The notes: generated from the sequence alone by a model not told the origin. A stretch of 52,133 bases of DNA from a virus (IMGVR_UViG_3300036791_000029:1-52133); one strand, 5' to 3'; shown: positions 1,240 through 51,303, counted from the first letter of the stretch. Numbers and translations are program-made.

Positions 1240-1275
1240 ACTCCTGGCGCCCTCTCATATATCGTTACGCAGTCA

Positions 1276-1483
1276 AACCTAACTAACCTAAACCTAACTA
1301 ACCGTCGTTTCTCCCTATATCTACTCTAGAAAAAAAGACCCCTCCCTTGGCGTTTTTTCTTTGTTATAATTATTACAGTTAAATAGGTTAATACGGTTAG
1401 CGAAATGAGAAAATCTAACGATTTCAGCGACTTACATATTCATTCCGCTAACCTAACTAACTACATATACGATCGTATATACG
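1276..1483. repeat. Iteron-like CCTAACTAAC repeats, palindrome and IHF-like site; candidate replication origin
   Basis: AACCTAACTAAC twice at 1277-1302 and again at ~1450; palindrome ATATACGATCGTATAT ~1465-1480; A/T tracts; non-coding gap after the helicase gene. Confidence 0.4.
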
Positions 1484-1487
1484 TTGT

Positions 1488-3056
1488 CTATTTGTCCTTC
1501 CAGAACCACACTTTGCGTATCTTGCCATCAACCAGTCTAGCTTTATTGTCGTGTCTACTAAATCCATACTTAACAAGAGCAGCACCAAATGCTCTAGACT
1601 TCCTCATCAATTCTGGTTTCATCATATCCCAACTCGTTTGAGCGTGAGTATAAATCAAATCCAAATATACACCGCTCTCTTTACATATCTCTAATTGGTT
1701 AGCATCCTTAAAGAAATCACATACCAGTTCATATTCATCAGAAACAAATACAACATCACGTTCATTAACTTGGTCTCTTTGCAATTCAAATTCTGCAGCC
1801 AGAAGATAACAACTTATTCCTTGTCTATACATTCTAATTGCTTGAGCAAGTATCTTTGGATATTCCTTTGCAAATCCTTCCAAGTCCATAAACTCATTTT
1901 GCCCTAGTTCTGACCTCAAAGTAATTGCTCTAGTATCTCCACTTTCATCTCTACCAAGAAATTGCTTTTCATTAGTAGTCAGTATGATTATGTTACGTTT
2001 TGCATAATCAATTACATCATCAGATCGCATACGTCTAAATGTAGAATGAGTTTCAGTAACAACTCTTTTGAATAGGTTCTTTGACGCTCTATCAGTTCCT
2101 CCTAACTCAGCAAACTCTACTACAGCCTTATCATACGTTTGTCTATAGAATTCAACAATATCATCTCTTGCTGATAAAGCAGCACTTGAATACCAAAAGT
2201 TTGGCACTAATAATCTACATAGTTGAGTCTTTCCAATATTTTGTTCTCCCTCAATAGTGAAATAATAACGTTGGGGAAGGCCAGGGGAAAAGCATCGCCA
2301 CACAAGAGATAGCATTAATGTTCTAGACCATACAGCACTCCATTGTTCTTTAGGAGCGCCCATATATTTGACAGCAAAACAATTCTCCACACTAAATCTT
2401 TCTATTCCATCATCAGGATTTTCATTTTCAATATTAGTCATCCACAACTTATAAAAATCAATTTTGTTTCTCTTAGCAACATTTTGTTGAGCTTCCTTTA
2501 ATGCTCCCCAATTATGTTCTGATGGGAAACCATTTCTATTGAGCTTACGTTTTAATTCAGTTCCATGATACTCATTATGTTTATGATACTTTTGTGCTAT
2601 TCCAGGCAATTCAAATATAGGTTCATTGCTATCCCAGTCAATTACTGTGTAATATATGTTAGCTGACATTTCATCCCAAATGCATTTTATTCGTTTGGCC
2701 GCCAGAAGAATAAGATACAAATTGTCTTGTGTCGGAAATATACCAGTTTTGTTTAATGTTAGTTCATTCAATGGAACATCTGTAAACTCTTCAAATTTTG
2801 TTCTAATTTTTTCTTGCGATTTACCAAGAACATATTTATCAATTAAATCATCAATTGTTCCTTTGCGCTTAATGCCTCGAAATGTATCTGATATTCGGCC
2901 TTTTATATTTTCATATTCATATTGATCTGATATGTATAAATCAGCAAGATGGTTTAATAGCTCTTCATTTTGACCAAGTAAATATTCATATTTAGCATCA
3001 TACGAGTCAAGTTCATTTAATTGAAATATTACTTTATTGATTTCAGAATTGTCCAT
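1488..3056 (-). CDS. VirE/VapE-family P-loop helicase
   Basis: Walker A GEQNIGKT, Walker B VVEFAEL, TTN and TR motifs; start likely MDNSE (3056) after GAGGG, ORF open to 3098. Confidence 0.85.
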   Translation of the reverse strand: MDNSEINKVIFQLNELDSYDAKYEYLLGQNEELLNHLADLYISDQYEYENIKGRISDTFRGIKRKGTIDDLIDKYVLGKSQEKIRTKFEEFTDVPLNELTLNKTGIFPTQDNLYLILLAAKRIKCIWDEMSANIYYTVIDWDSNEPIFELPGIAQKYHKHNEYHGTELKRKLNRNGFPSEHNWGALKEAQQNVAKRNKIDFYKLWMTNIENENPDDGIERFSVENCFAVKYMGAPKEQWSAVWSRTLMLSLVWRCFSPGLPQRYYFTIEGEQNIGKTQLCRLLVPNFWYSSAALSARDDIVEFYRQTYDKAVVEFAELGGTDRASKNLFKRVVTETHSTFRRMRSDDVIDYAKRNIIILTTNEKQFLGRDESGDTRAITLRSELGQNEFMDLEGFAKEYPKILAQAIRMYRQGISCYLLAAEFELQRDQVNERDVVFVSDEYELVCDFFKDANQLEICKESGVYLDLIYTHAQTSWDMMKPELMRKSRAFGAALVKYGFSRHDNKARLVDGKIRKVWFWKDK

Positions 3057-4065
3057 TTCTGTTCCCCTCTGCATCATTGTAAGCGTCTTTGAAAGCATCT
3101 TCTATTGTATTTCTATCATTCTTAGCATTGCCGTGCCACCACATCATAGCAGCAGCAGCAAATTCATCTTTTATTATATCATCATCAAGTAATCCAGCAA
3201 TACAATACTTAGCTATCCAAACTGTATGCTTATACAACCATTTATGTCTTTCGCCATCATCAACATACTTCATTTCTCTAATAACTTTTTCCTTGGATGC
3301 TATAGCTTGCTTAAATGTAGCTGGATGATATTCTTGTTTGCTATCGTTATCAGTTATAATATGTCTTATATCTGTAAATTGACTTTCACCACCAATCCAT
3401 GTCCACCATTTACTACAAGGATCGCTACACCCTATAAATCTAGGACGCGCGGTATAGATAGGCTGGACCGGCCCAAATAACGCTGTATCTACAACATCTT
3501 TCGCACCAGCAAAATGTTTCTTAAGCGCAATACAACTAACCTTCACACTATTCCACAAAAACAGCCTGATATGAATACCAGGCTTTCGCAAATAACCAGC
3601 ACTAGGAATAGCAAAGGCTTCCACACCACTCAAATTGAGCGCCAGGAGCACACGAGTAGCATCATCCTTCAGATCACCAGATGACACCCCATATCCATCA
3701 ATATCTAATGCGAACCAATTTTGGTTCTGTTCAATAATGGTTGCGCGATCACCCGTCGCACGATCATCATGGAACAATCGTCTCTGCCGCACAGCATTGT
3801 CATCAATAGCAGTGCCGCGTATAACACAGCATTGTGGACGCGCCAGGAGATACTTGATTAGTTCAAACAAATCCTGTAGATGATATACAGGACGATTGAA
3901 GAAATTGTAGTATTTGACATTATCATAAGCAACTTCAGAGGTAGGATATATTGTTTTGCATAATACAAATCTACTACTGTATGACTTACACACAGTAATA
4001 TTATTAGGAGTTATAAAATCACTTGTAGATTTTTCGCCGTCGTTACTATATATAGGGTCCGACAT
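3043..4065 (-). CDS. AEP-superfamily primase(-polymerase) with PriCT-like C-terminus
   Basis: ALDIDG (DxD), SAG..KPGIHIRLF, DTALF..VQPIYTARP, GERH; overlaps helicase; ATG 4065 after GGAGG. Confidence 0.65.
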   Translation of the reverse strand: MSDPIYSNDGEKSTSDFITPNNITVCKSYSSRFVLCKTIYPTSEVAYDNVKYYNFFNRPVYHLQDLFELIKYLLARPQCCVIRGTAIDDNAVRQRRLFHDDRATGDRATIIEQNQNWFALDIDGYGVSSGDLKDDATRVLLALNLSGVEAFAIPSAGYLRKPGIHIRLFLWNSVKVSCIALKKHFAGAKDVVDTALFGPVQPIYTARPRFIGCSDPCSKWWTWIGGESQFTDIRHIITDNDSKQEYHPATFKQAIASKEKVIREMKYVDDGERHKWLYKHTVWIAKYCIAGLLDDDIIKDEFAAAAMMWWHGNAKNDRNTIEDAFKDAYNDAEGNRNGQF

Positions 4066-4176
4066 CGTGTTTCCTCCCCGAAAGGATTGATGTCCGCTGC
4101 CTGGTAACAACTCAATACTCAGCAAAGTATTGGTTATCAGGCAGCGTTTTTCTTCAAACAACGTAAACGAACCGTA

Positions 4177-4205: not shown

Positions 4206-4218
4206 GCCTTATTTCGCT

Positions 4219-4500
4219 ATGCTTAGATCACATAGTAAATCCATAACAGCAATTGATCGTGCTGTATACTTATGGATGCTGTGCACTATTGAATGGATGC
4301 ACGAAAACAATCAACTAATATCAAATAACAATCTCACAAGAATATTTGGAGAAGAAACAAAGAAGCGTTTCAACTTCTATCGTGAAATAGCCATTGATAA
4401 TCATGACTTAACGCCAGGAGGAATAATCCTTACACCCAAAGGACAAAGGATCGTTGACTCCTGGCGCCGGCATCAAGAACGCATATTCAGTATTGATTAG
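4219..4500 (+). CDS. Hypothetical protein, possible winged-helix DNA-binding protein
   Basis: 93-aa ORF filling the gap; LTPKGQRIV resembles the end of a wHTH wing; no clear RBS. Confidence 0.4.
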   Translation: MLRSHSKSITAIDRAVYLWMLCTIEWMHENNQLISNNNLTRIFGEETKKRFNFYREIAIDNHDLTPGGIILTPKGQRIVDSWRRHQERIFSID

Positions 4501-4820: not shown

Positions 4821-5771
4821 TTAGCGAGGATTATTGTTGACAGCCCAATACTTTGGATTTGGACTGCCATCCTCTAAGGTTTCATTCTCACCCTCATGGT
4901 ACAGAGCAATATAGCCATGGTTCAAGTCCCAATTCCAGTGGTCTAGTCTTGGGCCATTAAACTTTGAACCACTTCTGACGGATGTTGCCTCTGGGTAGTC
5001 CTTGGTTCCGATATACTCAGAATAGTTCATACCATCCCTGTATATATCCCAAGCATAGTAACCCATCACACCTTCAGCACGTGGGTTCTTGTCCACCATT
5101 TTCCTAAGCCGCAAGTCATTGGTCCATTTTGTGGACCGCCTTGGGCCAGGAGCGCGTGGCTCACCATTAATCTTTGTGGACTTTTGCTTTACAGACTTCT
5201 CACCTTTACTGGTTCCCTTAGCATAGAGATACATACCAATTTCGGTGAGCTTAAGGCCCACAATGGTCTTGGGTTCACCACCATACTCGGCAACAGCAAG
5301 ACCGCGCTGAAGGATGTTGCGTTCCGTCCCAACGTCAAAGAAACCTTTCTTGATTTCTTCTGGGATATGATCGAGCGGAATAACAACATCCGTCACACTA
5401 TCAGCAGACTTCAAGATATCCAAACTTAGAAGAATGCCAATAGCTTGCTTCTCACGTTCAGACAAACGACGCGGACCAGTTACGCGTTCTGCGCGTTTGA
5501 CCCGTTCCTTTGCTTCTGCTTCCTCCTGTGCTTTGTGAGTAGCCTCATCAGTCACTTTTGATTCTGGATACTCTGCACCTTCCTTGGGTTGCTCTTCACC
5601 AATTTGGACTGCATAATCCTCATTGGCTTCTGGCGCAGACCCAACTGCATCATGTTCTGCAGTGGGATCTTGGGCGCCAGGAGAATGCCCCGGATTGTAC
5701 GGCACAGGTTGCACGACATGTTCACTCACTGGTTTATTCCTCAGAGTATGTTTACGTGCCCGTTGTGACAT
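4821..5771 (-). CDS. Hypothetical protein, possibly DNA-binding
   Basis: 316-aa ORF; disordered N-terminus, wing-like LKLTEIG, C-terminal KNPRAEG..YRDGMNYSEY segment. Confidence 0.7.
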   Translation of the reverse strand: MSQRARKHTLRNKPVSEHVVQPVPYNPGHSPGAQDPTAEHDAVGSAPEANEDYAVQIGEEQPKEGAEYPESKVTDEATHKAQEEAEAKERVKRAERVTGPRRLSEREKQAIGILLSLDILKSADSVTDVVIPLDHIPEEIKKGFFDVGTERNILQRGLAVAEYGGEPKTIVGLKLTEIGMYLYAKGTSKGEKSVKQKSTKINGEPRAPGPRRSTKWTNDLRLRKMVDKNPRAEGVMGYYAWDIYRDGMNYSEYIGTKDYPEATSVRSGSKFNGPRLDHWNWDLNHGYIALYHEGENETLEDGSPNPKYWAVNNNPR

Positions 5772-7387: not shown

Positions 7388-7416
7388 AGGCTCCTGGCGC
7401 CCAAAAGCGCCAGGAG
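7388..7416. terminator. Hairpin after 6870..7376 made of two inverted octamer copies
   Basis: CTCCTGGCGC-CCAAAA-GCGCCAGGAG 10-bp stem; no clear U tract. Confidence 0.4.
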
Positions 7417-8486: not shown

Positions 8487-8990
8487 ATGGCTAAGTTGAC
8501 TGCTTCCAAGGTTGCCTCTTTGCGTTCCTCCACAGCGCTGGCTACGCCAGTGTTTCACGTCTATGTTGTGGAGAACACTACTGATGGTGGCCGTTATGTG
8601 TCGGTGCGGAAGAACATTTCCGCCACGGCATTTTGGTCGTTGCTTTGTGTGGGTGCGCGCGATCCTAACTTTGATCAGCCTATCCACAACAGCATCCGTG
8701 TGATGGGTGATCAGAACTCATACCTTGAGGATTCACACCACAAGATCACTCGCGTCGCAACCTATACCTCCAAGACTGAGGCGCAGGTTGTTGCGGCCAA
8801 GATGATCGAGAACAACGCTATGAAGGCACGTGCCTACAACGCTACTCGGCCCAGCGCTGGGGCTTCCGCAGATTTTGAGTGGAAGTCAGAGGCTGAGTCA
8901 GCAGCGATGGTCAAGGCCGCAAAGGCCAAGACCCGCGCGCGCAAGAGCGCAAAGGTGACAGTTCCTGCTACCACAGAGGCTGTTGCCTAA
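8487..8990 (+). CDS. First early gene: degenerate GIY-YIG-like domain with Lys/Ala-rich tail
   Basis: ATG 8487 after TAAGGA; HVYVVENTTDGGRYVS, IHNSIRVMG and AYN echo GIY-YIG motifs; tail KAAKAKTRARKSAK. Confidence 0.6.
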   Translation: MAKLTASKVASLRSSTALATPVFHVYVVENTTDGGRYVSVRKNISATAFWSLLCVGARDPNFDQPIHNSIRVMGDQNSYLEDSHHKITRVATYTSKTEAQVVAAKMIENNAMKARAYNATRPSAGASADFEWKSEAESAAMVKAAKAKTRARKSAKVTVPATTEAVA

Positions 8991-8998: not shown

Positions 8999-9109
8999 GT
9001 TGGGCGCCAGGAGTATATACGCTTCTGGCGCCCAGCGCCGTAGTGCGATGTGTGTCGCACCCGATGATTCCAAAAGGATGAAACGGCACTAGAAAGGAAT
9101 GGAACAATG
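8999..9109 (+). repeat. Early-cassette leader copy 1 (hairpin + hammerhead + RBS)
   Basis: TTGGGCGCCAGGAG/CTTCTGGCGCCCAG stem; ends CTAGAAAGGAATGGAACAATG. Confidence 0.85.
9037..9087 (+). ncRNA. Candidate type III hammerhead ribozyme (core variant)
   Basis: GCCGU-A-[GUGCGA ugugug UCGCAC]-CCGAUGA-[U UCC aaaa GGA U]-GAA-ACGGC: correct topology and GUA triplet; deviations U4C and a U.U pair at the base of stem II. Confidence 0.65.
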
Positions 9110-9498: not shown

Positions 9499-9589
9499 GC
9501 AACCTTAACGGAATGAGCGCCAGGAGTAACAAGCTTCTGGCGGCTCATTCCGCTAGCGTTGTGCTAGTCTAGAAAGGAATGGAACAATG
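9496..9589 (+). repeat. Early-cassette leader copy 2
   Basis: GCAACCTTAACGGAATGAGC...GCTCATTCCGCTAGCGTTGTGCTAG then AGAAAGGAATGGAACAATG. Confidence 0.9.
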
Positions 9590-10594
9590 GAAAACTACAG
9601 TCTCACAGACTTGAGTAATGTTTCGTTGGCAAAGATTACGCCAGCAAAATTTCGTGAGATGGCTCTAGCCAAGATGCTGAGTTCTGGACCAGGAATGGAC
9701 ATCAACTATATGCCAACTACAAAAGAGTTGGATGTTATGGTAGATATGCTTGCCACAGCTGTTGCTGCCGGTAGGTTTATTGATTTTGGTTTCTGGCCTA
9801 ACGAATTCATCATAAAGAGCAGCGAAAGGGCATCAAACCTATACTATGAGGGTGCTCTTGGTCATCCGTTTTCGCAACCTTGGGTATTCTTCCATACTTG
9901 GAGCGATCCAAAATTGGATGCTGCCTTTGGTCGTGATCACGACGCTGTTTCTATATACTTGGTGAATCCTTTCCCAGTCGATGGAAAGGCTGTTGCTTGT
10001 GACTTTGAGATCACAGCAATCGAGCCAATGAATGTCCTTGGAAAGCCAATGCTATGTGTTGGTGATCGTGGTGCGCTCTATTGCAAAATGGATCGCCCGC
10101 CTGGAGCGAAGTATGCTTGCTCGATAATTCCGGTCCAGTTTCGTTTTCCTATGCATTTCTGGAATGCATATGCAGACGAAATGGGTAAGGAACATGGAGC
10201 GCAAGCTGCCTTACAAGCGGCAGGTGCTAACATAATGGAGCCTGCGTTCTTGGCGCTTCAAATGCTCAATACTAGAGGCATACCTAAAGAGACGATGCGT
10301 GTTGATGATAGGTTAAATCGGGCACGTATCAAGAACAAAAAGCCACCGATACCACCTTACACAAAAGTGTCGAGCGAGGAATACATCACGACGTTTATGC
10401 GTTCTCCAACAGAGCGTCGTGCTAGCCAAGGTGGAACGCATGCTAGTCCAGTTGCCCATATCCGTATGGGTCATTGGCGGCATTATCAGAGCGGTGAACG
10501 AACGTTCATCAATGATACTCTAGTGAATGCTGATGAGAGTATGCGTAAAATCTTCAAGTCTAATCGTGCTGGGTATATAGTAAAGCAAGGTTGA
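9587..10594 (+). CDS. Early hypothetical protein with C-terminal HASP..H.R.GH.R motif
   Basis: 335-aa ORF; GGTHASPVAHIRMGHWRH basic His-rich segment. Confidence 0.8.
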   Translation: MENYSLTDLSNVSLAKITPAKFREMALAKMLSSGPGMDINYMPTTKELDVMVDMLATAVAAGRFIDFGFWPNEFIIKSSERASNLYYEGALGHPFSQPWVFFHTWSDPKLDAAFGRDHDAVSIYLVNPFPVDGKAVACDFEITAIEPMNVLGKPMLCVGDRGALYCKMDRPPGAKYACSIIPVQFRFPMHFWNAYADEMGKEHGAQAALQAAGANIMEPAFLALQMLNTRGIPKETMRVDDRLNRARIKNKKPPIPPYTKVSSEEYITTFMRSPTERRASQGGTHASPVAHIRMGHWRHYQSGERTFINDTLVNADESMRKIFKSNRAGYIVKQG

Positions 10595-10675
10595 CGGAAT
10601 GAGCGCCAGGAGTAATGACCTGGTTGCTCATTCCGCCAGCGATTATTGCTGGGTCTAGAAAGGAATGGAACAATG
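10582..10675 (+). repeat. Early-cassette leader copy 3
   Basis: TTGACGGAATGAGC...GCTCATTCCGCCAGC...GCTGG and same RBS. Confidence 0.9.
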
Positions 10676-10945: not shown

Positions 10946-11032
10946 ATCGCTTACGGAATGGGCGCCAGGAGTAACATTCTGGTAGCCTATTCCGCCAGCA
11001 ATAGTGCTGGGCTAGAAAGGAATGGAACAATG
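10943..11032 (+). repeat. Early-cassette leader copy 4
   Basis: ACTATCGCTTACGGAATGGGC...GCCTATTCCGCCAGCAATAGTGCTGG and RBS. Confidence 0.9.
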
Positions 11033-11753: not shown

Positions 11754-11844
11754 CAGCCTTGACGGATGGGCGCCAGAAGAACAATACTCCTGGCCGCCTA
11801 TCCGCCAGCGCTGTTGCTGGAACTAGAAAGGAAAAGGAACAATG
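11751..11844 (+). repeat. Early-cassette leader copy 5
   Basis: TAGCAGCCTTGACGGATGGGC...GCCTATCCGCCAGCGCTGTTGCTGG; RBS AGAAAGGAAAAGGAACAATG. Confidence 0.9.
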
Positions 11845-12696: not shown

Positions 12697-12783
12697 CAGT
12701 ATTGACGGAATGGGCGCCAGGAGCAAATACTTCTGGCCGCCTATTCAGCCAGCACTGCGCTGGTGAAAGGAAAAGGAACAATG
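12694..12783 (+). repeat. Early-cassette leader copy 7
   Basis: TAGCAGTATTGACGGAATGGGC...GCCTATTCAGCCAGCACTGCGCTGG and RBS. Confidence 0.9.
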
Positions 12784-13248
12784 GAAAAGAATTATATGGG
12801 ATATGTATATGCATCAGCAGAACGCCATAAAGATACATTTAAGCGATATGAGGCTGGTGAATCTATAGAATCAATTGCCAAGAGTTATGGAGTGGTTCCT
12901 CAAACTATTCAACACCATCTCAAAAATATGGGTATCAAAACTAATTCAGAAACAAAAAGGCGATTGGTTGTATTAGCAAAGCAAAATGGTATTGATGTCG
13001 ATAGATGGCTAAGTATTTTACCAGAGAATATTGCATGGCAACAAATCTATTGGGAACGTCATCAATGCATGTTTAGAGCTGTGAATTTAGGCTTGCCTAT
13101 TAAAACAATTGAACATATATTCAATATATCTAGAGCACGTCTTTATCAACTAAGATTAGAACGTGAAAAAGGATATAGAAAACGACATCAGTCACCTGCT
13201 GAAAGATGGTTTTCATCTAGAAGATATTTGACTGATTTTGTGTCTTGA
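12781..13248 (+). CDS. HTH DNA-binding protein (two HTH-like segments)
   Basis: GESIESIAKSYGVVPQTIQHHL and GLPIKTIEHIFNISRARLYQL. Confidence 0.7.
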   Translation: MEKNYMGYVYASAERHKDTFKRYEAGESIESIAKSYGVVPQTIQHHLKNMGIKTNSETKRRLVVLAKQNGIDVDRWLSILPENIAWQQIYWERHQCMFRAVNLGLPIKTIEHIFNISRARLYQLRLEREKGYRKRHQSPAERWFSSRRYLTDFVS

Positions 13249-13914: not shown

Positions 13915-13923
13915 GAGAACACA

Positions 13924-14772
13924 ATGGCAAAGCGTGTAATACGGCAAGACAGCGTGACTGAGAACCTTCCTGCTACTCTCACAGCAGAAGAGGAAATGCT
14001 GGCCAAGCTGGCACAAAAGAATACAGTATTTGATCGTAATGAACAAGTTGTTCCGCGTCTCAAGATACTACAGCCACTTAATCCTGAAGTTCAGGAAGGT
14101 GGCAGTGCCTATGTTCCTGGTGCGAAAGCAGGTATGTTTTATAATACCGCAAGTAACAAGTTGACTCCTGGCCAGGAGGGGATGATCATTTGTGTTATTG
14201 GTCATCAAAAACAGACTATTGAATGGGCAAGTAACAATCCTGGTTCTGGTCTCATAAAGATTTGGGGATCAGATGAAGGTTGGAAAGCATTGTGCGAACC
14301 AGCTCAGCGTGATGCTCTTAATCCTTTGACCAGGGAAGGTCATTATATAGATAAGCAGAGATCATTTCTTATCTTGGATATCAATACTCAGACTGGAGAG
14401 ACTGATCCTAGTTTCTTCAATCTGAGAAGCACAGGTAATCGTGTGGCTAATCTCCTGGCCACGATGTTGACACAAACCAGGATGAAGATGAGTAATGGTC
14501 AGACTATTACTCCACCATTCTATTACTTCACATACAAGATGACATTAGACTTGGTGCGTAATATTCAAGGTCAATCTTGGTGGTCTCCCAAGATCGTAAA
14601 GAATACCAATAAGGATAATATGCATGTAAAGACACAAGATATGCCGAAAGGTGATGCTATCTTTAAGCAGGCTATACTACTACAGGAACATTTCCTGGAA
14701 GGTGGTATTCAACAGAGCGATTGGGAACAGCCCAATGCTGATTTGGGTGGTGATAATATTCCTTCATTCTAA
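13924..14772 (+). CDS. Putative ssDNA-binding / recombination protein
   Basis: VPRLKILQ..PEV..PGAKAG..YN motif; SSB-style tail DLGGDNIPSF. Confidence 0.55.
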   Translation: MAKRVIRQDSVTENLPATLTAEEEMLAKLAQKNTVFDRNEQVVPRLKILQPLNPEVQEGGSAYVPGAKAGMFYNTASNKLTPGQEGMIICVIGHQKQTIEWASNNPGSGLIKIWGSDEGWKALCEPAQRDALNPLTREGHYIDKQRSFLILDINTQTGETDPSFFNLRSTGNRVANLLATMLTQTRMKMSNGQTITPPFYYFTYKMTLDLVRNIQGQSWWSPKIVKNTNKDNMHVKTQDMPKGDAIFKQAILLQEHFLEGGIQQSDWEQPNADLGGDNIPSF

Positions 14773-35332: not shown

Positions 35333-35693
35333 TTGGTGATGTCTCGCCGTATTCAGGCATTACATTTAGAGCAACTAAATCAGCATATTCTTGATAGACT
35401 AATTGATATATGCCGCTACTAAATCCATCGCGAGGCACAGGACCACTTCTATAATATTCAGACAATACTTGTAATTCTCCTGGCGGCATGTCCTCATATC
35501 TATATTGCCAAGTCAAAGGATAATTAGCAGATACTGATATACCAGAGATCAAAGTTTGATATGCTGAATTGCGGATACTCATAGTCCAATAGCCTCCACT
35601 ATCGTTCCAATTTAGAATTATGTAAAAAATAATACCATCTAGTTCAGCTTCAAGAGATTGACTGTTTAAGTCTTGCACTGGAATAACAAACAT
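35322..35693 (-). CDS. Baseplate-associated small protein
   Basis: MFVIP...LNWN....WTMSI; between tube initiator and hub. Confidence 0.65.
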   Translation of the reverse strand: MFVIPVQDLNSQSLEAELDGIIFYIILNWNDSGGYWTMSIRNSAYQTLISGISVSANYPLTWQYRYEDMPPGELQVLSEYYRSGPVPRDGFSSGIYQLVYQEYADLVALNVMPEYGETSPIVI

Positions 35694-38444: not shown

Positions 38445-38461
38445 TTATATTACTCCTGGCG

Positions 38462-39671: not shown

Positions 39672-40844
39672 CTATGCCCGAACGTTATTGCGATTAGCCA
39701 TACGCGCGCGTCTCTGTTGTTCAGCTACCATTGCCACATTTACTGCGCTAGTAGGAGTAGCAATAGGCAATGATTCATAAGTCAGAACACCTTGTATTTG
39801 CACAACATGGATTGCACCAGCGAGCCTTGCAGTAAAGTATACATCTCGCAAGATACGATTTGCTTTATCATTAACAGAAACTGATTGAGAAAGAGGAACA
39901 TCAATAGTATAGCTAGGAACCAAATTACCATCCGTATCAACTTCAGCCGGAGCAATACCACCTCTAGTGACTCCAAAGTCAAGAGCCTGTTGTACTCTTG
40001 TGCGGATAATCGCAATACCAGGATCAGTGTAAGGAATACGATTATCAACCATTTGAAGGAATACACGCGTCTTGATTTCTTCGCAGAGCCAATCTCTAAA
40101 CCTAATTACATCAATCCATTCTCCACCAGCAACTTTACCATTCTGGGTAATAGCAATATTGCGGAATGGCTCGAATGTATTACCGTTCTTAGCAAAGAGA
40201 TTGTTGAATGTTGTTTCATTAATGTAGTTATAATCAACATTACTCAAACGCTGATTAGCCCATGTCTCCTGGCCAGGATATTTGGTGAAGCTTTTGGACG
40301 CAATAGCAACATCAGGAAAGTTTTGAATGTTAGGATCATACCACCAAGCAGTTCTAAACAATTGGGCTTGCATAAGACTATGAGCTACAGATGTGGTATC
40401 GCCAGCAGCAGGTGTAGTATTATCAATATCACTCAACACAGTAATGAAAAGTTTCTCTTGGGATTCAATCCAGGTGCCAATGTCCAATGCTCTATTCTCA
40501 TCGTGAGTTGAATCACACAATGCCCACCAATCACTATTCTCGTCATTAATAGCGGACAGATCATCATCAACGTTAGCAGCACCGCTATCAAAACCAATAT
40601 ACAATTGTGGAGGATGCGGTATCTGACTAAAGAATACTTGGGCAGCTAGATACATAGCATCTGTTGCTTGGCAACCATAAGTATCTAACAGTTCATCTGG
40701 ATCAGTAATAATGTATACATTTGCTGTATCTGTGCTAGGTTTTACAAATGTTCCAAACAACAACAGATCACTGAATGTTGCTTGAGTAATACCAGCAGTT
40801 CGCAGAGAGATAGATACTTGAACGATACGGTCGATGTTTGCCAT
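39672..40844 (-). CDS. Tail sheath protein (DUF3383-like)
   Basis: PGQETW, GEWIDVIRFRDWL, IPYTDPG, LAGAIH. Confidence 0.9.
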   Translation of the reverse strand: MANIDRIVQVSISLRTAGITQATFSDLLLFGTFVKPSTDTANVYIITDPDELLDTYGCQATDAMYLAAQVFFSQIPHPPQLYIGFDSGAANVDDDLSAINDENSDWWALCDSTHDENRALDIGTWIESQEKLFITVLSDIDNTTPAAGDTTSVAHSLMQAQLFRTAWWYDPNIQNFPDVAIASKSFTKYPGQETWANQRLSNVDYNYINETTFNNLFAKNGNTFEPFRNIAITQNGKVAGGEWIDVIRFRDWLCEEIKTRVFLQMVDNRIPYTDPGIAIIRTRVQQALDFGVTRGGIAPAEVDTDGNLVPSYTIDVPLSQSVSVNDKANRILRDVYFTARLAGAIHVVQIQGVLTYESLPIATPTSAVNVAMVAEQQRRARMANRNNVRA

Positions 40845-43027: not shown

Positions 43028-43690
43028 TTAGGCTACCATCTCCTGGCTGGGCTTGCCCCGATACTTGATCGCGCCAAGAAGAATAATGCCCAAACCAATT
43101 ATGGCGAGGCCAGCAGGCTCAGATGCTGGAACTGCATTAGAGGATGCATTACCAGCTACAGTCGCAGTAAAACTATTAATAGTTGAGCCTGCGATAGTGA
43201 TAGGCGGAGATACGTTCGTCAAGCCAAACGTCAAAGCAGAAGGATTGACCAACTGTGATGCTGGGATCACAGAAGATGTCAAGTTGAGAGTATCAGGTGG
43301 AGCACCGATAGCAAGAGTAAGTGCCTGGCCTACTCCAAGAGCGGCATCAGTAAACGATCCTGACAGCAAGTTAGTTCCACCACCACCAGCAGCAGAGGTG
43401 ATAGAGAATGTTCCACTATAATGCTGAAGTGCGCCCGTCCCTACAGGAACAGCAGCATCAACACTAGTAGCATTAATGTTGAAGAACTCAGAACCAAGAA
43501 TACCACACAGACACTGAGTTACATCAACAGCAATGTTACTGCCAGAGATGGTTGTGGCTGTATCAGATCCATTTGCTGTAGCAGTAATGGTATTACTACC
43601 ACTAGTCTGAGCAAACTGGATTATCGGTACAGCATAGGCAGCAATAGGAAAGAACAAGGCGCCGACAACAAGAGCCATTAGTTTCTTCAT
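43028..43690 (-). CDS. Secreted protein with PEP-CTERM-like sorting signal
   Basis: Signal peptide ending AYA; Ser/Thr/Gly-rich body; VPASEPAGLAIIGLGIILLG then KYRGK. Confidence 0.75.
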   Translation of the reverse strand: MKKLMALVVGALFFPIAAYAVPIIQFAQTSGSNTITATANGSDTATTISGSNIAVDVTQCLCGILGSEFFNINATSVDAAVPVGTGALQHYSGTFSITSAAGGGGTNLLSGSFTDAALGVGQALTLAIGAPPDTLNLTSSVIPASQLVNPSALTFGLTNVSPPITIAGSTINSFTATVAGNASSNAVPASEPAGLAIIGLGIILLGAIKYRGKPSQEMVA

Positions 43691-43759: not shown

Positions 43760-44344
43760 TTATCGTTTAGTCTGCTGCTGTGGAGTAGGCTGACCACCTG
43801 GCTCTGTTGGATGACCGGGCTGCCCACCAGGATCAATAGGATTAGCAGGCCGATTACCTGAACCACCGCCAGGAGCAATTGGATGGGATGGATGACCAGG
43901 TAAAGGCATACCAACATCAAGACTAGGATCAACTACTGTGTAGCCAATTACCTTAAGCCCACCAGCAGCACTTGCCGCAACTATAGCAACCAAGAATTTT
44001 TGACTTGGCAATCCTTGACCTGGACGGCCAGGTTGACTCGGCAAACCTTGATCTGGATGCGGTTGACTACCAGGCAAATCTTGATTTGGTCTTCCAGGTT
44101 GACTTGGCAAAGTATTATCAAGTACAGGCGGCCAAATAGAACCTGGAGGCATTGGATAACCTGGAGGCAATTGTACTGGTGGCCAAATACCAACAGGTGG
44201 TGGCCAAATGCCAGGAGGTGGTGGAGGCAAAGTATTATCTACAAATGGTGGAGCACCTCCCCAAATGCCTGGAGGCATTCCAGGCAAACTATTATCAGGT
44301 CCACCACCACTAGTAATAATCATAGCAGGTGTGCTTACAGCCAT
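43760..44344 (-). CDS. Pro/Gly-rich low-complexity protein
   Basis: GIWPP repeats and DNSLP/DNTLP/DQGLP repeats. Confidence 0.75.
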   Translation of the reverse strand: MAVSTPAMIITSGGGPDNSLPGMPPGIWGGAPPFVDNTLPPPPPGIWPPPVGIWPPVQLPPGYPMPPGSIWPPVLDNTLPSQPGRPNQDLPGSQPHPDQGLPSQPGRPGQGLPSQKFLVAIVAASAAGGLKVIGYTVVDPSLDVGMPLPGHPSHPIAPGGGSGNRPANPIDPGGQPGHPTEPGGQPTPQQQTKR

Positions 44345-44538
44345 TACGCATTGTCCTTTTCTGTCTGATCTTCAACAATGACGAGAACAGGCACGTTACG
44401 TTCAGTCACATCTTTCATTATGCGCTGAACACCAGGATGATTTAGATAATCATCCTCTACCTCAGTAGGCTGGCCAGGAGTAAGCATAGTATCAATGAGC
44501 GTTATTACTCGCTCACTGTTGTTGACCATTAGCACCAT
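44344..44538 (-). CDS. Small hypothetical protein after major capsid
   Basis: 64-aa ORF abutting both neighbours. Confidence 0.65.
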   Translation of the reverse strand: MVLMVNNSERVITLIDTMLTPGQPTEVEDDYLNHPGVQRIMKDVTERNVPVLVIVEDQTEKDNA

Positions 44539-45531
44539 TTAGGTTGTATAACCTTTCAGCAGAGCTAATGGGTAATACACTGTAACACCTGCGCTCCTGG
44601 CCAGGCAATCCACAACGATCTCAAGATTGCGAGCATCAGGAGGAAGCTGCGAGAATGGCATTACGTATTCATGAGCGAGGTTATTGATGTTACGCTCATA
44701 GAGCAGAGCCACATCCTTACCTGCATTTGCGCCTTGGCCAGCACCAGTGCATTCCCAGATATTCTCTACAGTCAAGCCTGGGTAATTAGACAGAAACAAA
44801 CCCAAAGCAGAAATGGGCAATCCACCAGGCCCAGTAACAAACTGAGTCGTGGCTGCCACATATGCTTTAGTTGACAATTCTAGATGGTCTGCTGTATGAA
44901 CCCCAAGGTTCTGCGTAATGTAAGCAGAAACCATTCCGACTAGATTGGCATAGATTTGAGCGCCAGTAAGAGTTGACCAATCACCAGGATTAGGAAACAC
45001 ATATTCTGGAACGTTTGGATGAGTAAACAATCCATACAATCCAAAATCAGGATCACCTTTCAACTTAATGCTGGCGATCTTAAGATCCATTGCGCGTCTA
45101 GCAGCATCTGCTTTTCGCGTATCCAGACCAATTCCAGTCGCTCTACTGGCCCGCAATTCGTTTACATTGTAACCGTAACTGTTGCCAAGTGTCTTAACTT
45201 GGACTGTTTTACCAGCACCAGTCACATCCGCGCGCGGGAGATCATCAGCATAGTTGGCAATTACCTTAGCCATTCCAACTGCATCGAACATTCGGATTGT
45301 AATAGTCTCAACCCATTCCGGCACCGAAGTGTCATCAGGAACAAGACGATCAGCGTTTATTCCTGGCAGCAAACGATCGTATGTTTGCGCTTTAATAAAG
45401 TTGAGTTGCTGTGCTAGCCAAATGCCAGTAGTGGTGGTTGGCAATTGATCTTCACGCAAATTTCGTTCAACAAAGTCCATGACAGGACCAATGTCGGCCT
45501 CATCATAGGTAGCTTGATTATCAAGTAGCAT
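44539..45531 (-). CDS. Major capsid protein (DUF2184-like)
   Basis: GMAKVIANYADDLPRAD, YGYNVNELRA, GLFTHPN, GVTVYYP. Confidence 0.92.
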   Translation of the reverse strand: MLLDNQATYDEADIGPVMDFVERNLREDQLPTTTTGIWLAQQLNFIKAQTYDRLLPGINADRLVPDDTSVPEWVETITIRMFDAVGMAKVIANYADDLPRADVTGAGKTVQVKTLGNSYGYNVNELRASRATGIGLDTRKADAARRAMDLKIASIKLKGDPDFGLYGLFTHPNVPEYVFPNPGDWSTLTGAQIYANLVGMVSAYITQNLGVHTADHLELSTKAYVAATTQFVTGPGGLPISALGLFLSNYPGLTVENIWECTGAGQGANAGKDVALLYERNINNLAHEYVMPFSQLPPDARNLEIVVDCLARSAGVTVYYPLALLKGYTT

Positions 45532-46098: not shown

Positions 46099-46124
46099 TT
46101 GCTTATCCTTTCACGAAATGTTAT

Positions 46125-47543: not shown

Positions 47544-48390
47544 CTTCCGTTTCCATTAGACTAGCTTCAACACCAATAGCCTCAGGCAATACTGGTTCTG
47601 CCCAACAACGACATTGATAGTCTTCACCAGGTTCATTAAAGTCAGTATCTCCTGGCGGATTACCCCATTGGAATGTTTGCCCATCTACCTCTGCGTGAGT
47701 TTCTCTAACGCGCTCATCTCCTACTGTGCGCCATACATAACTATCAACACCAATATCTTGTTGTCTTTCACTAGTAAGTTTGCCATTCAATTTAGCAACT
47801 TGATCTCTAGCAATAAGGTCACATCTACTATCAGTAACATCTAGTCTTTCATCAAATACATCGTATATGTCTGAGGATAAATCCTCCTGAGTTTGACCAC
47901 TCATTAATGCCTCTCTGGTCATATCAGATATTTGTCGTAACGTCTTTGCTGGTATATCTTTTATGAGCGCAGCATTATTGAATGACCAATGATCCAATAG
48001 ATCACGATAAGCAGCAGGGTCTTCAGCAGTAGGATTAACACCATATTGCGATCGTATCAGTTTCGTCCATTCTGATTTATTGTATTGATTTACGCGCGGA
48101 CCAATTGCACTCATACGCTTAATAGTTGCGTTAGTAGGCTTAACCATATCCTTGGCTATATCAGTCAAAGCTTTATTCAAATCATCTTGCCAAGCATCTT
48201 GCCTAATATGTCCACCCGCAGGATGAGATGTATCAGTAATTTCTTTGGTAGCATCTTCAACAATTGGATGTAGATAATGTTTGACAGCCTTCCGCATTTG
48301 GGCATTAAGCCAACGCAGATTGCGCCGATACTCATATTCCACTCCTATGGGATACTTCATAGGAACAATCTTTTTGCGTTTGCGTGGCAT
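47536..48390 (-). CDS. Head morphogenesis protein (SPP1 gp7 / Mu gpF family)
   Basis: LIARDQ, YVWRTVGDERVRETH, PGEDYQCRC. Confidence 0.92.
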   Translation of the reverse strand: MPRKRKKIVPMKYPIGVEYEYRRNLRWLNAQMRKAVKHYLHPIVEDATKEITDTSHPAGGHIRQDAWQDDLNKALTDIAKDMVKPTNATIKRMSAIGPRVNQYNKSEWTKLIRSQYGVNPTAEDPAAYRDLLDHWSFNNAALIKDIPAKTLRQISDMTREALMSGQTQEDLSSDIYDVFDERLDVTDSRCDLIARDQVAKLNGKLTSERQQDIGVDSYVWRTVGDERVRETHAEVDGQTFQWGNPPGDTDFNEPGEDYQCRCWAEPVLPEAIGVEASLMETEDA

Positions 48391-48479
48391 CAATGATAAA
48401 CTTTAGTTGTTACTACACAAAGCCAAACAGCAAAGACGCCGATCGCTATACCTCCAATAATTGATAAAGCATACCACAT
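48390..48479 (-). CDS. 29-aa transmembrane microprotein
   Basis: MWYALSIIGGIAIGVFAVWLCVVTTKVYH; TGATG overlaps at both ends. Confidence 0.55.
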   Translation of the reverse strand: MWYALSIIGGIAIGVFAVWLCVVTTKVYH

Positions 48480-49915
48480 CATTTTACTGGAACTTGTAGA
48501 GTTGTAGTATTTACTCCTGGCGGCTGTGACGGATCAGTTGGAACATCCATCTGTGTTACATCTACATTAGCACTATAGTTCAGTTCCTCTGGGAATGTAG
48601 GCAACTCAGGATCAAACTCATACTCAGCATACATATCCTCTACAACAATCTGTCTAACCTCTTCTGGAGACAATATTTGATTATCCATAAATGCTACTAG
48701 TGTTTGCTGTCTAAAGTTATCAGCTTGCTCTTCAACTAAGTCTTTGTCTGCTTCCTCTTTGGCTGTCGGCACCCACAATGGATTAAATGTAATGTGCCAA
48801 TCATCAGGTATGCTATTCTTGAGCTCTTTCTGAAGCCACAATATAGATGTTAGCTTTTCCAAAGGTGGTCTAACAATTACCTCTTGAATATGAGCGACCA
48901 TTACATAATGAGACTCAAGATCACCAGCATTAGTTTGATTAAGTCCTTTTGTTGACTTACCAAATAACATGTTCTCTTGGAAGCCAGTAGATGCTGCTAA
49001 TGCTGTTTGGAACTCTTGTAGAGCAGCTTGTATACCATCAATACCTGGACTTTGTACTGCGTAAGTATCATCTTTATCTACAACCACAGAGTTCAAATTA
49101 CCTCTGACCTGGTCTACCATATTGATACGTTTAATGGCCATAGCATCATCACCATTAGCCAACATTTCACCTAGACCAGACATATTGTATACTGCTTGTT
49201 GTTTCCTTTCCAACAGACGTTCTGTCCAATCTAGAGCGCGCTCATATCGTCCAATATCTTTGGCACAGCTTTCTAATACTGATCTACCAGCCCATGGGAT
49301 ACGATTATACTTCATCATATTGGGTGGCATAGGCTCACCAGGCACTGGTATTAGTCTAGTTTCATGTATCTCAAAAGTTTGTCCTTCTGATGGCGTAATC
49401 TGATAGAACTCTGGTTTCCCAAATGTATCAGGATCATTTTGATCTGTATAGTATTTCTCTGTGCCATGTATACTTGTTATATCATACACTCTAATTTCAT
49501 TAATTGTATCTAGATTGTCTGTATTAAGCGGATCAGTAAAGTCACCACCATCTTGGGCAATAAGGATTAGAGCAGCACCACCGTATAGACGCGACCATCT
49601 AATAGCATCAGCCATTCTTGTTAGTACAGACAAACGATCATATTCATCTTGCATTACTTCATCTTCATCATTCTCTATTTCAATGCCGCGCTGAAACGAG
49701 TCATCAGCAGGCTTATCAACTATCTTTTGTGCTAATCCACTAGTGATATATAGATTTGTTAGTTCAAATACTGACCATCGCAAAGACCAATAACGAGATA
49801 GTCCACGCCCCAACCAATTGCTTGTTTGGAACGTTGTAGATGTTCTATCAAGACTTGGAACACCAAGTCCAGACAATAGATTAGCATAGCCATCTTGGCG
49901 TCTAATAGCATTCAT
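48479..49915 (-). CDS. Portal protein (DUF1073-like)
   Basis: WSRLYGGA, IHETRL, LFGKSTKGLN, FNPLW; follows TerL. Confidence 0.9.
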   Translation of the reverse strand: MNAIRRQDGYANLLSGLGVPSLDRTSTTFQTSNWLGRGLSRYWSLRWSVFELTNLYITSGLAQKIVDKPADDSFQRGIEIENDEDEVMQDEYDRLSVLTRMADAIRWSRLYGGAALILIAQDGGDFTDPLNTDNLDTINEIRVYDITSIHGTEKYYTDQNDPDTFGKPEFYQITPSEGQTFEIHETRLIPVPGEPMPPNMMKYNRIPWAGRSVLESCAKDIGRYERALDWTERLLERKQQAVYNMSGLGEMLANGDDAMAIKRINMVDQVRGNLNSVVVDKDDTYAVQSPGIDGIQAALQEFQTALAASTGFQENMLFGKSTKGLNQTNAGDLESHYVMVAHIQEVIVRPPLEKLTSILWLQKELKNSIPDDWHITFNPLWVPTAKEEADKDLVEEQADNFRQQTLVAFMDNQILSPEEVRQIVVEDMYAEYEFDPELPTFPEELNYSANVDVTQMDVPTDPSQPPGVNTTTLQVPVK

Positions 49916-51303
49916 GACGATAATGCCAAGTAACGTTCATATTGCGATACACCAGCGATACATTCTAGATAGGCACCACTACTGGCGTCAATATAATCAT
50001 CATGATCACCCTCAGGAAAAACAGCCATTTCCTTCAAGTAATCATTCACCCACTGGCCTTCAACTATGTCAATATTACCAGCTTGCCATTGCGCAGATAG
50101 TGGTTCTGCCCTCGTTTCTTTTGGTCCAGTTTCTCTTACTGACTTAGCCTTGAAGCCGGCAAGATGAGAGATGAGACTTGCTGATTGATCCTTTCCAGCC
50201 TGTCCTGGATCTTGTGGCACGACCGTTGTAACTCGTTTATACTTGTTACGATCCTGCCAAGCAGTATTAAGCAATATATCACGAACAATAGAAGCATTAT
50301 GTCTAATGCTAATACCATCAGCAATACATATGCGGCCATTCTCTCTGCGACCCATTAATACTGAAGCTGTAGCACTAGGCGAAGGATTAACTTCACTAGG
50401 TTCTGTGGCAGCCAAATCCCAGCGACGCACCCACATCTTCACATCAGTAGGAACAGCAGGAATAATCTTGGCCATTACTTGAGGGAAATAAGAACCAGCA
50501 CTAGGTCTAATCTTCCAATTACCATGTAACAGACGTTCACGCTCAACTCTAGTCATCATCTCTAGGTTGGCACGATAGTCTGGGTCTTGTTCGTTCAGAA
50601 TAACATTATCTTCTAATGTTGCCGGAATGAATGTAAATGACTTAGGCAACGACGCAGGGAATTTATTGAGTAACTCCTGGCGCGTGTCAGCCCAAAACAT
50701 TTTATCATCAAATCTGACAAAGTAACGAATAATGCCACTTCGTTCTAATATTGGGTAACCAGTATCTTGATCAATCCACCAAGAGACTAGATCAGCAACC
50801 CAAGAGTCAGCATCAGGATTGCAAGTAGCACGTATATACGGTCTAACACCACACATCGAACGATTACGAGACAGCATATACCAAAATTGCTTCTCGGTGA
50901 AGTGAGTAAGCTCATCATATCCAATGAGTGGTATCTGCGAGCCTTGCCAATCCAGCACATCCTTTTCTTGGTTGAGATGGCCAAACGTTATTGTCGATCC
51001 ACTAGGGAAAGACCATGAACGATATGGACTTTGTTTTGGTATACCATCTATACGCACATATATGCCGAAACTTGTATCAAACAAACCACCTTCTGAGGTT
51101 ATTTGTACAGCTTCACGACGGAATATGACTGCTCCAAAGTCACTATTGTCGAGGTGTCGGCATGGTTCTAACAGTAATGCGTATGTTTTGCCGCCTCCGG
51201 CTGCACCTCCATATATGGCTATGTCAGCACTAGTAGACAAGAATTGTTCTTGTGGTCCAGGTTGCGGACCAATATCATTAGTATCATCAAATCCATCATA
51301 CAT
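49912..51303 (-). CDS. terL: Terminase large subunit
   Basis: GGAAGGGKT, IGYDE, ATCNP, WDLAA, HDDYIDA; ORF open to 51324. Confidence 0.95.
   Translation of the reverse strand: MYDGFDDTNDIGPQPGPQEQFLSTSADIAIYGGAAGGGKTYALLLEPCRHLDNSDFGAVIFRREAVQITSEGGLFDTSFGIYVRIDGIPKQSPYRSWSFPSGSTITFGHLNQEKDVLDWQGSQIPLIGYDELTHFTEKQFWYMLSRNRSMCGVRPYIRATCNPDADSWVADLVSWWIDQDTGYPILERSGIIRYFVRFDDKMFWADTRQELLNKFPASLPKSFTFIPATLEDNVILNEQDPDYRANLEMMTRVERERLLHGNWKIRPSAGSYFPQVMAKIIPAVPTDVKMWVRRWDLAATEPSEVNPSPSATASVLMGRRENGRICIADGISIRHNASIVRDILLNTAWQDRNKYKRVTTVVPQDPGQAGKDQSASLISHLAGFKAKSVRETGPKETRAEPLSAQWQAGNIDIVEGQWVNDYLKEMAVFPEGDHDDYIDASSGAYLECIAGVSQYERYLALSS

Follow-up and report, generated by a model that had tools for sequence, protein, structure and literature searches.

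An octamer oriented about a non-coding region in a clade of uncultured soil myoviruses, and its possible role as a Chi-type signal

The complete virus record IMGVR_UViG_3300036791_000029:1-52133, a single contig of 52,133 bases analysed here at its full length (the window), carries an octamer, GCCAGGAG (reverse complement CTCCTGGC), that is iterated about once per kilobase and is oriented about one non-coding region. The gene set is of the myovirus type. The large terminase (TerL), portal, protease, capsid, sheath, tape measure, baseplate and collagen-like fibres are encoded on the minus strand, and a DNA polymerase III alpha-type polymerase with a separate proofreading exonuclease, ThyX, a pyrophosphatase and an SNF2-family ATPase (22420-23889) on the plus strand. 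The open reading frames (ORFs) are our own greedy calls, and many of them match no family in PHROGs or Pfam. Among the ORFs scanned with PHROGs and/or Pfam, no gene was detected for a recombinase, a Gam/Abc-type inhibitor or a methyltransferase, nor a Vsr-like or an FtsK/SpoIIIE-like one; the ORF at 778-1239 shows a weak similarity to RecU/resolvases. No tRNA and no Rfam match were detected in the window. The first ~936 bases recur at the end of the contig with ~95% identity, which gives a unit length of ~51.2 kb. The two ends (1-936 and 51198-52133) form a direct repeat that is only ~94-96% identical. Rather than a true terminal repeat, it looks like the result of an assembly that went once around a circular or permuted genome and continued into the variant of a second strain.

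No close isolate relative of the window was recovered by megablast. The closest TerL matches are an unannotated gut phage (53% identity) and Rhizobium phages (52%), and the polymerase, the Pam3 gp34-like protein and the capsid have distant matches only. Three public runs hold the phage, all of them soil metagenomes, including the two, labelled as such, that hold most of the sequence.

Exact copies of the octamer number 55 in the window (30 on the plus and 25 on the minus strand; 1.07 per kb), which makes GCCAGGAG its commonest octamer. The original prediction, made from the sequence of this record alone, had put the count at about 55 against an expectation of about one or fewer, and both figures hold: a copy is present at every position it listed, and dinucleotide-preserving shuffles yield 1.07 copies on average, with a maximum of 5 and none of 100 shuffles reaching 55. 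The order-3 Markov expectation is 2.4. Also as claimed, the copies occur on both strands, mostly within coding sequences and in several frames. Forty-four lie in ORFs, 23 in the sense and 21 in the antisense orientation, and 11 are intergenic; the genic copies use five of the six frames (PG 21, LLA 8, xQE 8, AR[RS] 6, SW 1). Their spacing is somewhat more even than random, with a coefficient of variation of 0.75 versus 0.97 and 1.9% of random placements equally even.

The octamer differs from its own reverse complement and is thus non-palindromic. Its sixth position is soft, both here and in the relatives: GCCAGNAG is completed by G in 55 cases, by A in 17, by T in 11 and by C in 7, so that the one-mismatch words GCCAGAAG, GCCAGTAG and GCCAGCAG are found 17, 11 and 7 times, respectively, with 0-4 occurrences for each of the remaining 21 words. 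The base preceding the octamer is C or G in 52 of the 55 copies, and the extended forms GCGCCAGGAG and GCGCCAGGAGTA occur 25 and 10 times. The inverted pairs that had been reported comprise one overlapping palindrome, CTCCTGGCCAGGAG (14165-14178), and two spaced pairs (7391/7409 and 15516/15525). Among previously described words, neither the highly iterated palindrome 1 (HIP1) nor the uptake sequences occur in the window (0 copies), and AGCGG, GCGCGTG and GAAGCGG are not enriched there. The Escherichia coli Chi, GCTGGTGG, has 9 copies, mostly on the sense strand of structural genes; the 938-residue fibre gene contains collagen-like Gly-X-Y repeats with a 9-nt period (33149-33662) that account for most of these and for several frequent words (CCACCA, TGCTGGTG). 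A full-text literature search with the octamer alone returned only primers, and in combination with RecBCD/AddAB nothing relevant.

The enrichment is not a by-product of the encoded proteins. With the proteins fixed, synonymous codon shuffles within genes give 3.4 copies (maximum 9, n=200), and shuffles pooled across genes 2.2 (maximum 6, n=200), versus 44 observed; 44 of the 108 places where the octamer is synonymously possible (41%) carry it. The proteins themselves are bent toward the octamer, given that these 108 octamer-compatible peptide places compare with 62.6 +/- 8.1 in residue-shuffled proteins (maximum 88, n=300). The spread over frames and the two kinds of shuffle rule out a protein or codon artefact. 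Seven sense copies double as Shine-Dalgarno (SD) ribosome-binding sites, and seven intergenic elements place the octamer in the stems of strong hairpins (-23 to -33 kcal/mol, z -4.8 to -6.7). The arm opposite the octamer in these hairpins is often CTTCTGGC, which pairs through G.U and explains part of the excess of GCCAGAAG. The original prediction had taken the octamer for a signal at the level of DNA and had named two outcomes that would speak against this, a loss of enrichment in protein-preserving shuffles and a lack of excess conservation at synonymous sites. Instead, the enrichment persists (44 copies versus 2.2-3.4), and an excess is found at third codon positions, as detailed below; together with the conservation of sites and the excess of peptide places, these results strongly support a signal that acts on DNA.

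The octamer is a conserved trait of a clade. In IMG/VR contigs with a TerL 68-87% identical to that of the window it occurs at ~1 per kb, a density not seen in the relatives at ~50% TerL identity. Among whole records, G001 holds 57 copies in 52.3 kb, G002 39 in 35.3 kb and G003 33 in 32.8 kb, compared with 0 matches to a reversed control word in the three genomes; the relatives share ancestry, and site counts across genomes are non-independent. Over the 38.4 kb that align with G001 at 76.8% identity, 33 of 44 aligned octamer sites are identical, versus 18.1% of all aligned 8-mers. Third codon positions match G001 at 91 of 108 positions inside the octamer, at 437 of 761 in the 30-nt flanks and at 7297 of 12011 elsewhere, and the comparison of octamer with flanks gives 25/29 versus 109/197 for G002 and 33/42 versus 163/329 for G003.

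One lineage of the clade, L009 (TerL 73% identical, 7 kb), has no GCCAGGAG and contains seven copies of CCCAGGAG as its dialect of the word. At the octamer site in TerL that 11 of 15 clade loci have in common, the window reads ACG CGC CAG GAG and L009 reads TCG CCC CAG GAG, an Arg-to-Pro replacement that keeps the local dialect. A search for further members of the CCCAGGAG lineage recovered only the same contig and a 99.9% identical piece of 2.6 kb. More distant relatives were also considered. A candidate analogous word in G005 was rejected, its frequent words being tandem coding repeats, and in L032 (TerL 49% identical, 62% G+C) the GGCCAAGGCC-type words (12 in 11.9 kb versus 2.7 expected, on both strands) probably reflect Ala-Lys-Ala codons in a G+C-rich genome, not an analogous signal. 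No analogous word was found in the remaining relatives with ~50% TerL identity.

The octamer is also polar, a new finding that the original prediction had missed, together with the soft sixth position, the L009 dialect and the hairpin context of the intergenic copies. On both arms of the genome, the majority of GCCAGGAG sites point away from the non-coding region at 1240-1487 (hereafter the switch), with away:toward counts of 36:19 in the window, 39:18 in G001, 27:12 in G002 and 25:8 in G003. The bias is strongest next to the switch: by site instances in the four genomes, all 14 sites within 2.5 kb point away, as do 18 of 23 at 2.5-5 kb and 61-72% of those farther out. A common map of six genomes contains 132 distinct sites, with counts of 56+/28- up to 25.6 kb and 17+/31- beyond (p = 0.001). 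When 15 loci are anchored on TerL, distinct sites number 2+/21- at -5000..-1300 and 22+/3- at -1300..+5000 (Fisher p = 3.7e-8), although the upstream sites counted as distinct may include one orthologous site shifted by indels, so that the effective number is lower. The flip falls between -1528 and -1121 from the TerL start, which corresponds to 1240-1487 of the window; this position was derived from the data, and independent lineages repeat it.

Several observations bear on the origin of this polarity. The genes that flank the switch share one strand, so that transcription or coding does not explain it, and the first 5.8 kb, which consist of minus-strand genes, side with the plus-gene block (17+/8- sites). 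Outside the octamer, CCAGG, GCCAGG and CCAGGAG show no such polarity. Sites absent from the window and present in relatives follow the same trend in orientation, as do 7/7 of the CCCAGGAG sites in L009. Conservation in G001 is 24/28 for sites in the majority orientation and 9/16 for the others. Gradient and step models fit the mapped sites equally well. A flip that is near-absolute beside one locus, with selection on both strands everywhere, points to a process that moves along the DNA from or toward this locus.

Short repeats that differ by lineage sit on both sides of the conserved core of the switch: AACCTAACTAACC in the window (1276, 1291 and 1450, plus inverted GGTTA copies), ATAACCG in G002, CTCTACCG/GTAGAA in G001 and AATTACCG in L002. 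The VapE-like replicative helicase encoded next to the switch is 67% identical to that of G002, which shares the TAACC-type iterons, and only 37% and 34% identical to those of G001 and L002, which have other iterons, although G001 is otherwise the closest genome to the window (TerL 86%, polymerase 88%). The small ORFs beside TerL do not track the iteron type. This comparison of four lineages is suggestive of an iteron type that follows the helicase allele, and the helicase looks like an allele replacement made in step with the adjoining iterons. Given this covariation, the switch is a candidate origin or packaging site; we lean toward a replication origin, a pac/cos site being possible. Most relatives match the window at 70-88% identity in their other genes but at only 34-39% in the helicase.

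It is quite possible, and we tentatively propose, that the octamer acts as a Chi-type signal by which a DNA-end-processing helicase-nuclease of the RecBCD/AddAB class, most probably the enzyme of the host, is controlled. The enrichment, DNA-level selection, conservation, dialect and polarity about 1240-1487 are observed, whereas the enzyme, the host and the strand that would be read are inferred. Such an enzyme would enter phage DNA at a double-strand end, for which the injected genome end, a rolling-circle tail, a broken fork and a restriction cut are candidates, and would unwind and degrade the DNA until it met the octamer in the right orientation on the 3'-ended strand. Degradation would then stop and RecA would be loaded, and the phage DNA would be spared and channelled into recombination for circularisation or concatemer formation. 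A phage without a recombinase or a RecBCD inhibitor of its own would profit from each well-placed copy, so that copies would accumulate through synonymous and tolerated amino-acid changes, hairpin stems and ribosome-binding sites, oriented by where the ends arise. Should the ends form at the switch, 5'-CTCCTGGC-3' would be the active strand; should the switch be an origin to which the broken-fork logic of bacteria applies, the G-rich 5'-GCCAGGAG-3' would be active. An origin and a polarity directed by ends would be compatible if a rolling-circle tail started at the origin.

Phages saturated with Chi are a described class that includes LLS, P1 and Pseudomonas MD8 (Zheng, Casjens, Davidson, Amundsen and Smith 2025, PMC12315714). 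According to that report, Chi occurs at 1 per 1.9 kb in LLS and P1, compared with ~1 per 4.6 kb in E. coli, and in Chi-rich phages it is oriented for RecBCD entry and recombination modules are absent; PMC5959072 gives ~1 per 3 kb for Pseudomonas syringae. As in LLS, P1 and MD8, the octamer is a short non-palindromic word that is the top octamer of the phage, lies in genes far above chance and is biased in orientation. Among the ORFs scanned in the window, many of which match no family, no recombination module or RecBCD inhibitor was detected. As in P1, where we count 31+/19- Chi sites, the word occurs on both strands. The differences are that the octamer is not a known Chi, that the density is about twice as high and that the sites are laid out on two arms flanking a non-coding region inside the genome, not in a single direction toward a right cos end. 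Furthermore, the clade consists of uncultured soil myoviruses, unlike the lambdoid or P1-like phages.

Like the bacterial Chi sequences of E. coli (GCTGGTGG) and P. syringae (GCTGGCGC; PMC5959072), the octamer is 8 bases long, strand-specific and over-represented, and its variants in different lineages diverge at one end. Its commonest extended form (CTCCTGGCGC), when read as the reverse complement and hence on the strand of 5'-CTCCTGGC-3', contains the CTGGCGC of the Pseudomonas Chi. Unlike bacterial Chi, the octamer has an invariant CTCC and a degenerate position 6, and its density is several-fold higher. Two properties looked for in a Chi are found: the word is short, asymmetric and over-represented (55 versus 1.07, and also high in G001, G002 and G003), and its orientation is biased relative to ends or replication (14/14 within 2.5 kb; 2:21 versus 22:3). 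Of the three options raised in the original prediction, the Chi-like one fits best, on account of the polarity and of the precedent of Chi-rich phages, and the HIP1-like and binding-lattice ones are disfavoured.

Several observations weigh against a Chi-type signal. Among 905 bacterial genomes scanned (401 from the class of a Planococcus, 301 from the class of an Enterobacter, 201 from the phylum of a cyanobacterium and 2 others; G449, G551 and G706 enter only as part of this tally), none has the octamer as a dominant word; the highest density is 0.26 per kb, and the genomes that reach it are also rich in the control word. The density of 1.07 per kb in the phage is about twice that of Chi in LLS and P1 and exceeds those in E. 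coli and P. syringae. The opposite orientation is seen in about one third of the copies, of which those on the right arm are equally conserved (8/9). Known Chi sequences offer no counterpart to the invariant CTCC, and the two flank positions behind the resemblance to GCTGGCGC are conserved at only 65% and 51%. The many ORFs that match no family might hide a recombinase or an inhibitor. Finally, the origin-like features of the switch lend some weight to a reader encoded by the phage, be it a primase, a motor or a binder. With regard to candidate hosts, G427 was rejected (62% G+C; the octamer ranks ~870th in the 385 kb examined), and a scan of genome contigs for inverted pairs gave, among the matches listed, scattered high-G+C genomes (chance hits) and no outstanding locus. 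Many cyanobacterial genomes (the phylum of G007) hold GCCAGGAG 20-100 times above the reversed control (e.g. 261 versus 3) at <0.1 per kb; the control word contains CG, and this ratio is therefore likely a dinucleotide effect.

An octamer owned by the phage is a less likely alternative to a host Chi. The virus would then mark its own DNA, and one of its proteins would read a polar 8-mer arrayed from the phage origin; the diverged VapE-type helicase with a primase partner, the SNF2-family motor or an ORF without a family would be candidate readers. Priming, end protection or motor guidance might in this way be restricted to phage DNA, and the G-to-C dialect might reflect co-evolution of reader and word.

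Another reading, which we consider rather unlikely, assigns the octamer to the replisome: replication would start in both directions from the switch, and 5'-GCCAGGAG-3' in the template of the lagging strand would be the place where Okazaki fragments are begun by a phage primase, perhaps the ORF at 3043-4161 acting with the VapE-like helicase, so that an 8-base priming word ties replication to phage DNA. The iterons, AT-rich DNA and conserved core of the switch, its position next to the helicase gene and the covariation of iteron type with the helicase allele, unlike the small ORFs beside TerL, are all consistent with an origin. With an origin placed there, the majority orientation corresponds to the lagging-strand template of both arms, with copies rather evenly spaced at ~1 per 1.4 kb. 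However, copies on the supposedly useless strand are also enriched ~40-fold (19 versus ~0.5 expected), many of them conserved, and a fixed direction of replication does not predict the drop in polarity from 100% near the switch to ~65% farther away. The ORF at 3043-4161 has no family match, the covariation comes from four lineages, and known primases read three bases, not eight.

Polar words that guide a motor, such as the FtsK-orienting polar sequences (KOPS) and SpoIIIE recognition sequences (SRS), direct FtsK/SpoIIIE, a host septal motor, on bacterial chromosomes. It seems improbable that the octamer is a similar guide for a directional double-stranded DNA motor in the phage, be it the terminase, the SNF2-family ATPase or one supplied by the host. 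Such a motor would be steered to or from the switch, for instance to resolve concatemers or to locate the packaging site. The octamer resembles KOPS/SRS in being a polar 8-mer with one degenerate inner position, its two-arm polarity is centred on 1240-1487 and strongest next to this putative target, and an SNF2-family ATPase is indeed encoded. However, the polarity of ~65% over most of the genome is weak and falls below that of KOPS/SRS, the density of KOPS is much lower than that of the octamer, and no FtsK/SpoIIIE-like motor gene was found among the phage ORFs scanned. A KOPS-like guide system is not known from tailed phages.

Equally doubtful is a lattice of binding sites for a phage DNA-binding protein, for instance a nucleoid-like coat, a global regulator or a self-marking protein, that would read double-stranded DNA regardless of orientation. 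The high and fairly even density, the conservation of the sites, the informative flanks (C or G at position -1 in 52/55), the presence of a small helix-turn-helix protein at 12763-13248 and the dialect, which could mean co-evolution with a phage protein, all agree with this idea, but an orientation-blind binder does not predict a sharp polarity. The original prediction had named the ORFs at 8487..8990, 4821..5771 and 12781..13248 as candidates; nothing links them, or any other ORF, to the octamer, and only 12763-13248 encodes a small protein with a weak helix-turn-helix match, which has no tblastn match in G001, G002 and G003, all of which keep the octamer. The stoperators of cluster A mycobacteriophages are a known example of dozens of short asymmetric sites across a phage genome. 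These sites are 13-14 bp long, mostly intergenic and oriented with transcription, unlike the octamer, with 44 of 55 copies in genes, 23 sense and 21 antisense, and an orientation that ignores the gene strand.

HIP1 (GCGATCGC) of cyanobacteria, a palindrome without polarity, is an octamer of cellular genomes that is found about once per kb, in every frame and at conserved positions. A comparable drive by methylation-linked repair of the very-short-patch type, acting on the CCAGG core without any function for the phage, would explain conservation without selection. The octamer contains CCAGG, occurs in all usable frames at a similar density and is positionally conserved. Nonetheless, we regard such a drive as very improbable: the octamer is asymmetric and polar, and a repair drive should not reverse orientation at one locus; CCAGG outside the octamer is common and shows no polarity; the one-mismatch neighbours are neither depleted nor enriched save at position 6, where GCCAGAAG, the transition neighbour, is in excess; HIP1 is itself absent from the window; and neither a methyltransferase nor a Vsr-like gene was found among the ORFs scanned. 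Least probable of all is a host DNA-uptake signal or another host-wide iterated word carried passively, because the DNA uptake sequences (DUS) of Neisseria and the uptake signal sequences (USS) of Pasteurellaceae, which belong to the genomes of competent hosts and resemble the octamer in density (~1 per kb), occurrence on both strands, inverted pairs in hairpins and dialects, are not polar, the octamer never exceeds 0.26 per kb in the 905 genomes scanned, and there is no obvious gain to a phage from being taken up.

If the Chi-type reading is true, the octamer is a new candidate Chi sequence of an uncultivated bacterium and could be used to find this host through a genome that over-represents it. 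Chi saturation would then extend beyond the lambdoid, P1 and Pseudomonas phages described in 2025 (PMC12315714) to uncultured soil myoviruses, with the highest Chi density yet and a two-armed layout. If the octamer is instead read by replication or motor proteins of the phage itself, it would represent a new kind of viral self-recognition. The data make an unusually clean case that a short DNA signal can override codon choice and even protein sequence genome-wide, as seen in the 41% of possible places occupied and in the Arg-to-Pro replacement that accompanies the dialect.

Table 1. Coordinates of features in the window. Away and toward refer to the non-coding switch at 1240-1487; for octamer sites, conserved means identical in the relative G001.
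Feature	Position	Strand	Remarks
Non-coding region of orientation flip (switch)	1240..1487		conserved core CGATTTCAGCGACTTA, AT-rich DNA, lineage-specific short iterons
VapE-like (SF3) replicative helicase, adjoins switch	1488..3098	-	PF05272, 3.6e-31
Large terminase (TerL)	49912..51324	-	phrog_979, 1.6e-157; anchor for locus comparison
Octamer, left arm, away; also SD of ORF 778-1239	1241..1248	-	
Octamer, right arm, away; antisense in minus-strand gene (LLA)	3641..3648	+	conserved
Octamer, away; antisense in gene	3842..3849	+	conserved
Octamer, away; intergenic	4413..4420	+	conserved
Octamer, toward; partner of 4413	4458..4465	-	conserved
Octamer, away	5145..5152	+	not conserved
Octamer, away	5676..5683	+	conserved
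Inverted octamer pair (7391 -, 7409 +), 11-bp hairpin stem	7391..7416		-23.2 kcal/mol, z -6.4
Intergenic hairpin, octamer 9006 (+) in 5' arm, CTTCTGGC in 3' arm (G.U pair)	8999..9036	+	-32.2 kcal/mol, z -6.4
Intergenic hairpin, octamer 9519 (+)	9509..9552	+	-32.9 kcal/mol
Intergenic hairpin, octamer 10605 (+)	10590..10640	+	-33.0 kcal/mol
Hairpin, octamer 10964 (+)	10954..10994	+	-27.2 kcal/mol; conserved
Hairpin, GCCAGAAG in 5' arm, octamer 11787 (-) in 3' arm	11755..11812	+	-31.2 kcal/mol
Hairpin, octamer 12716 (+)	12702..12752	+	-26.1 kcal/mol
Two overlapping octamers, palindrome CTCCTGGCCAGGAG	14165..14178		both conserved
Octamer, toward	14452..14459	-	not conserved
Inverted octamer pair (15516 -, 15525 +)	15516..15532		both conserved
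Octamer, toward	16876..16883	-	conserved
Octamer, away; also SD of ORF 17519-17836	17505..17512	+	
Octamer, away; also SD of ORF 18234-18524	18213..18220	+	
Octamer, toward	18554..18561	-	conserved
Octamer, toward; in polymerase gene	20018..20025	-	conserved
Octamer, away	20123..20130	+	conserved
Octamer, away	20460..20467	+	not conserved
Octamer, away	21023..21030	+	conserved
Octamer, away	21374..21381	+	conserved
Octamer, toward	21695..21702	-	conserved
Octamer, toward	22828..22835	-	conserved
Octamer, away	23588..23595	+	conserved
Octamer, away	23738..23745	+	conserved
Octamer, away	25354..25361	+	region unaligned to G001
Octamer at peak of cumulative orientation skew, opposite switch	26251..26258	+	
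Octamer; also SD of ORF 24241-26367	26372..26379	-	
Octamer, left arm, away; also SD of ORF 26594-28312	28326..28333	-	
Octamer, away	29216..29223	-	conserved
Octamer, toward	31323..31330	+	not conserved
Octamer, toward	31383..31390	+	not conserved
Octamer, away; collagen-like fibre gene	33140..33147	-	
Octamer, toward	34652..34659	+	not conserved
Octamer, away	35477..35484	-	conserved
Octamer, toward	35779..35786	+	not conserved
Octamer, away	36614..36621	-	conserved
Octamer, away; also SD of tape-measure gene 36399-38444	38453..38460	-	
Octamer, away	40266..40273	-	conserved
Octamer, away; also SD of ORF 42514-43026	43040..43047	-	
Octamer, toward	43868..43875	+	conserved
Octamer, toward	44210..44217	+	not conserved
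Octamer, toward	44473..44480	+	not conserved
Octamer, away	44594..44601	-	not conserved
Octamer, away	47649..47656	-	conserved
Octamer, away	48514..48521	-	conserved
Octamer in TerL (codons CGC CAG GAG)	50674..50681	-	common to 11/15 clade loci
CTAGAAAGGAATGGAACAATGG repeats	9081-9113, 9561-9593, 10647-10679, 11004-11036, 12250-12270, 12755-12787		
CGTATATACG/CGTAGATACG repeats	474-498, 5905-5929, 8283-8307, 8406-8430, 12153-12221, 51774-51798		

Several other features of the window were observed in the course of the analysis. The adjacent genes at 13414-14772 match Pfam families named for cyanophage Pam3 gp33 and gp34; proteins of this type are also found in PB1-like Pseudomonas phages, so that the match is no pointer to a cyanobacterial host. 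The tail-fibre block is closed by a 708-residue ORF (24241-26367) that matches no PHROG/Pfam family and holds a 56-nt near-tandem duplication (26120-26175 and 26186-26241).

Two repeat families were identified in addition to the octamer. The CTAGAAAGGAATGGAACAATGG repeat is start-associated, being located at the ribosome-binding site and start of small early genes, and most of its copies are preceded by an octamer hairpin ~40 nt upstream. Hairpin and repeat make up a recurrent inter-gene cassette that may be a processing site or a promoter. The second family, in non-coding DNA, is built on CGTATATACG/CGTAGATACG palindromes, includes a 33-nt inverted repeat within 12153-12221 and may represent operators or promoters. 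The word CGTATATA is frequent in the relatives as well, occurring 19 times in L013.

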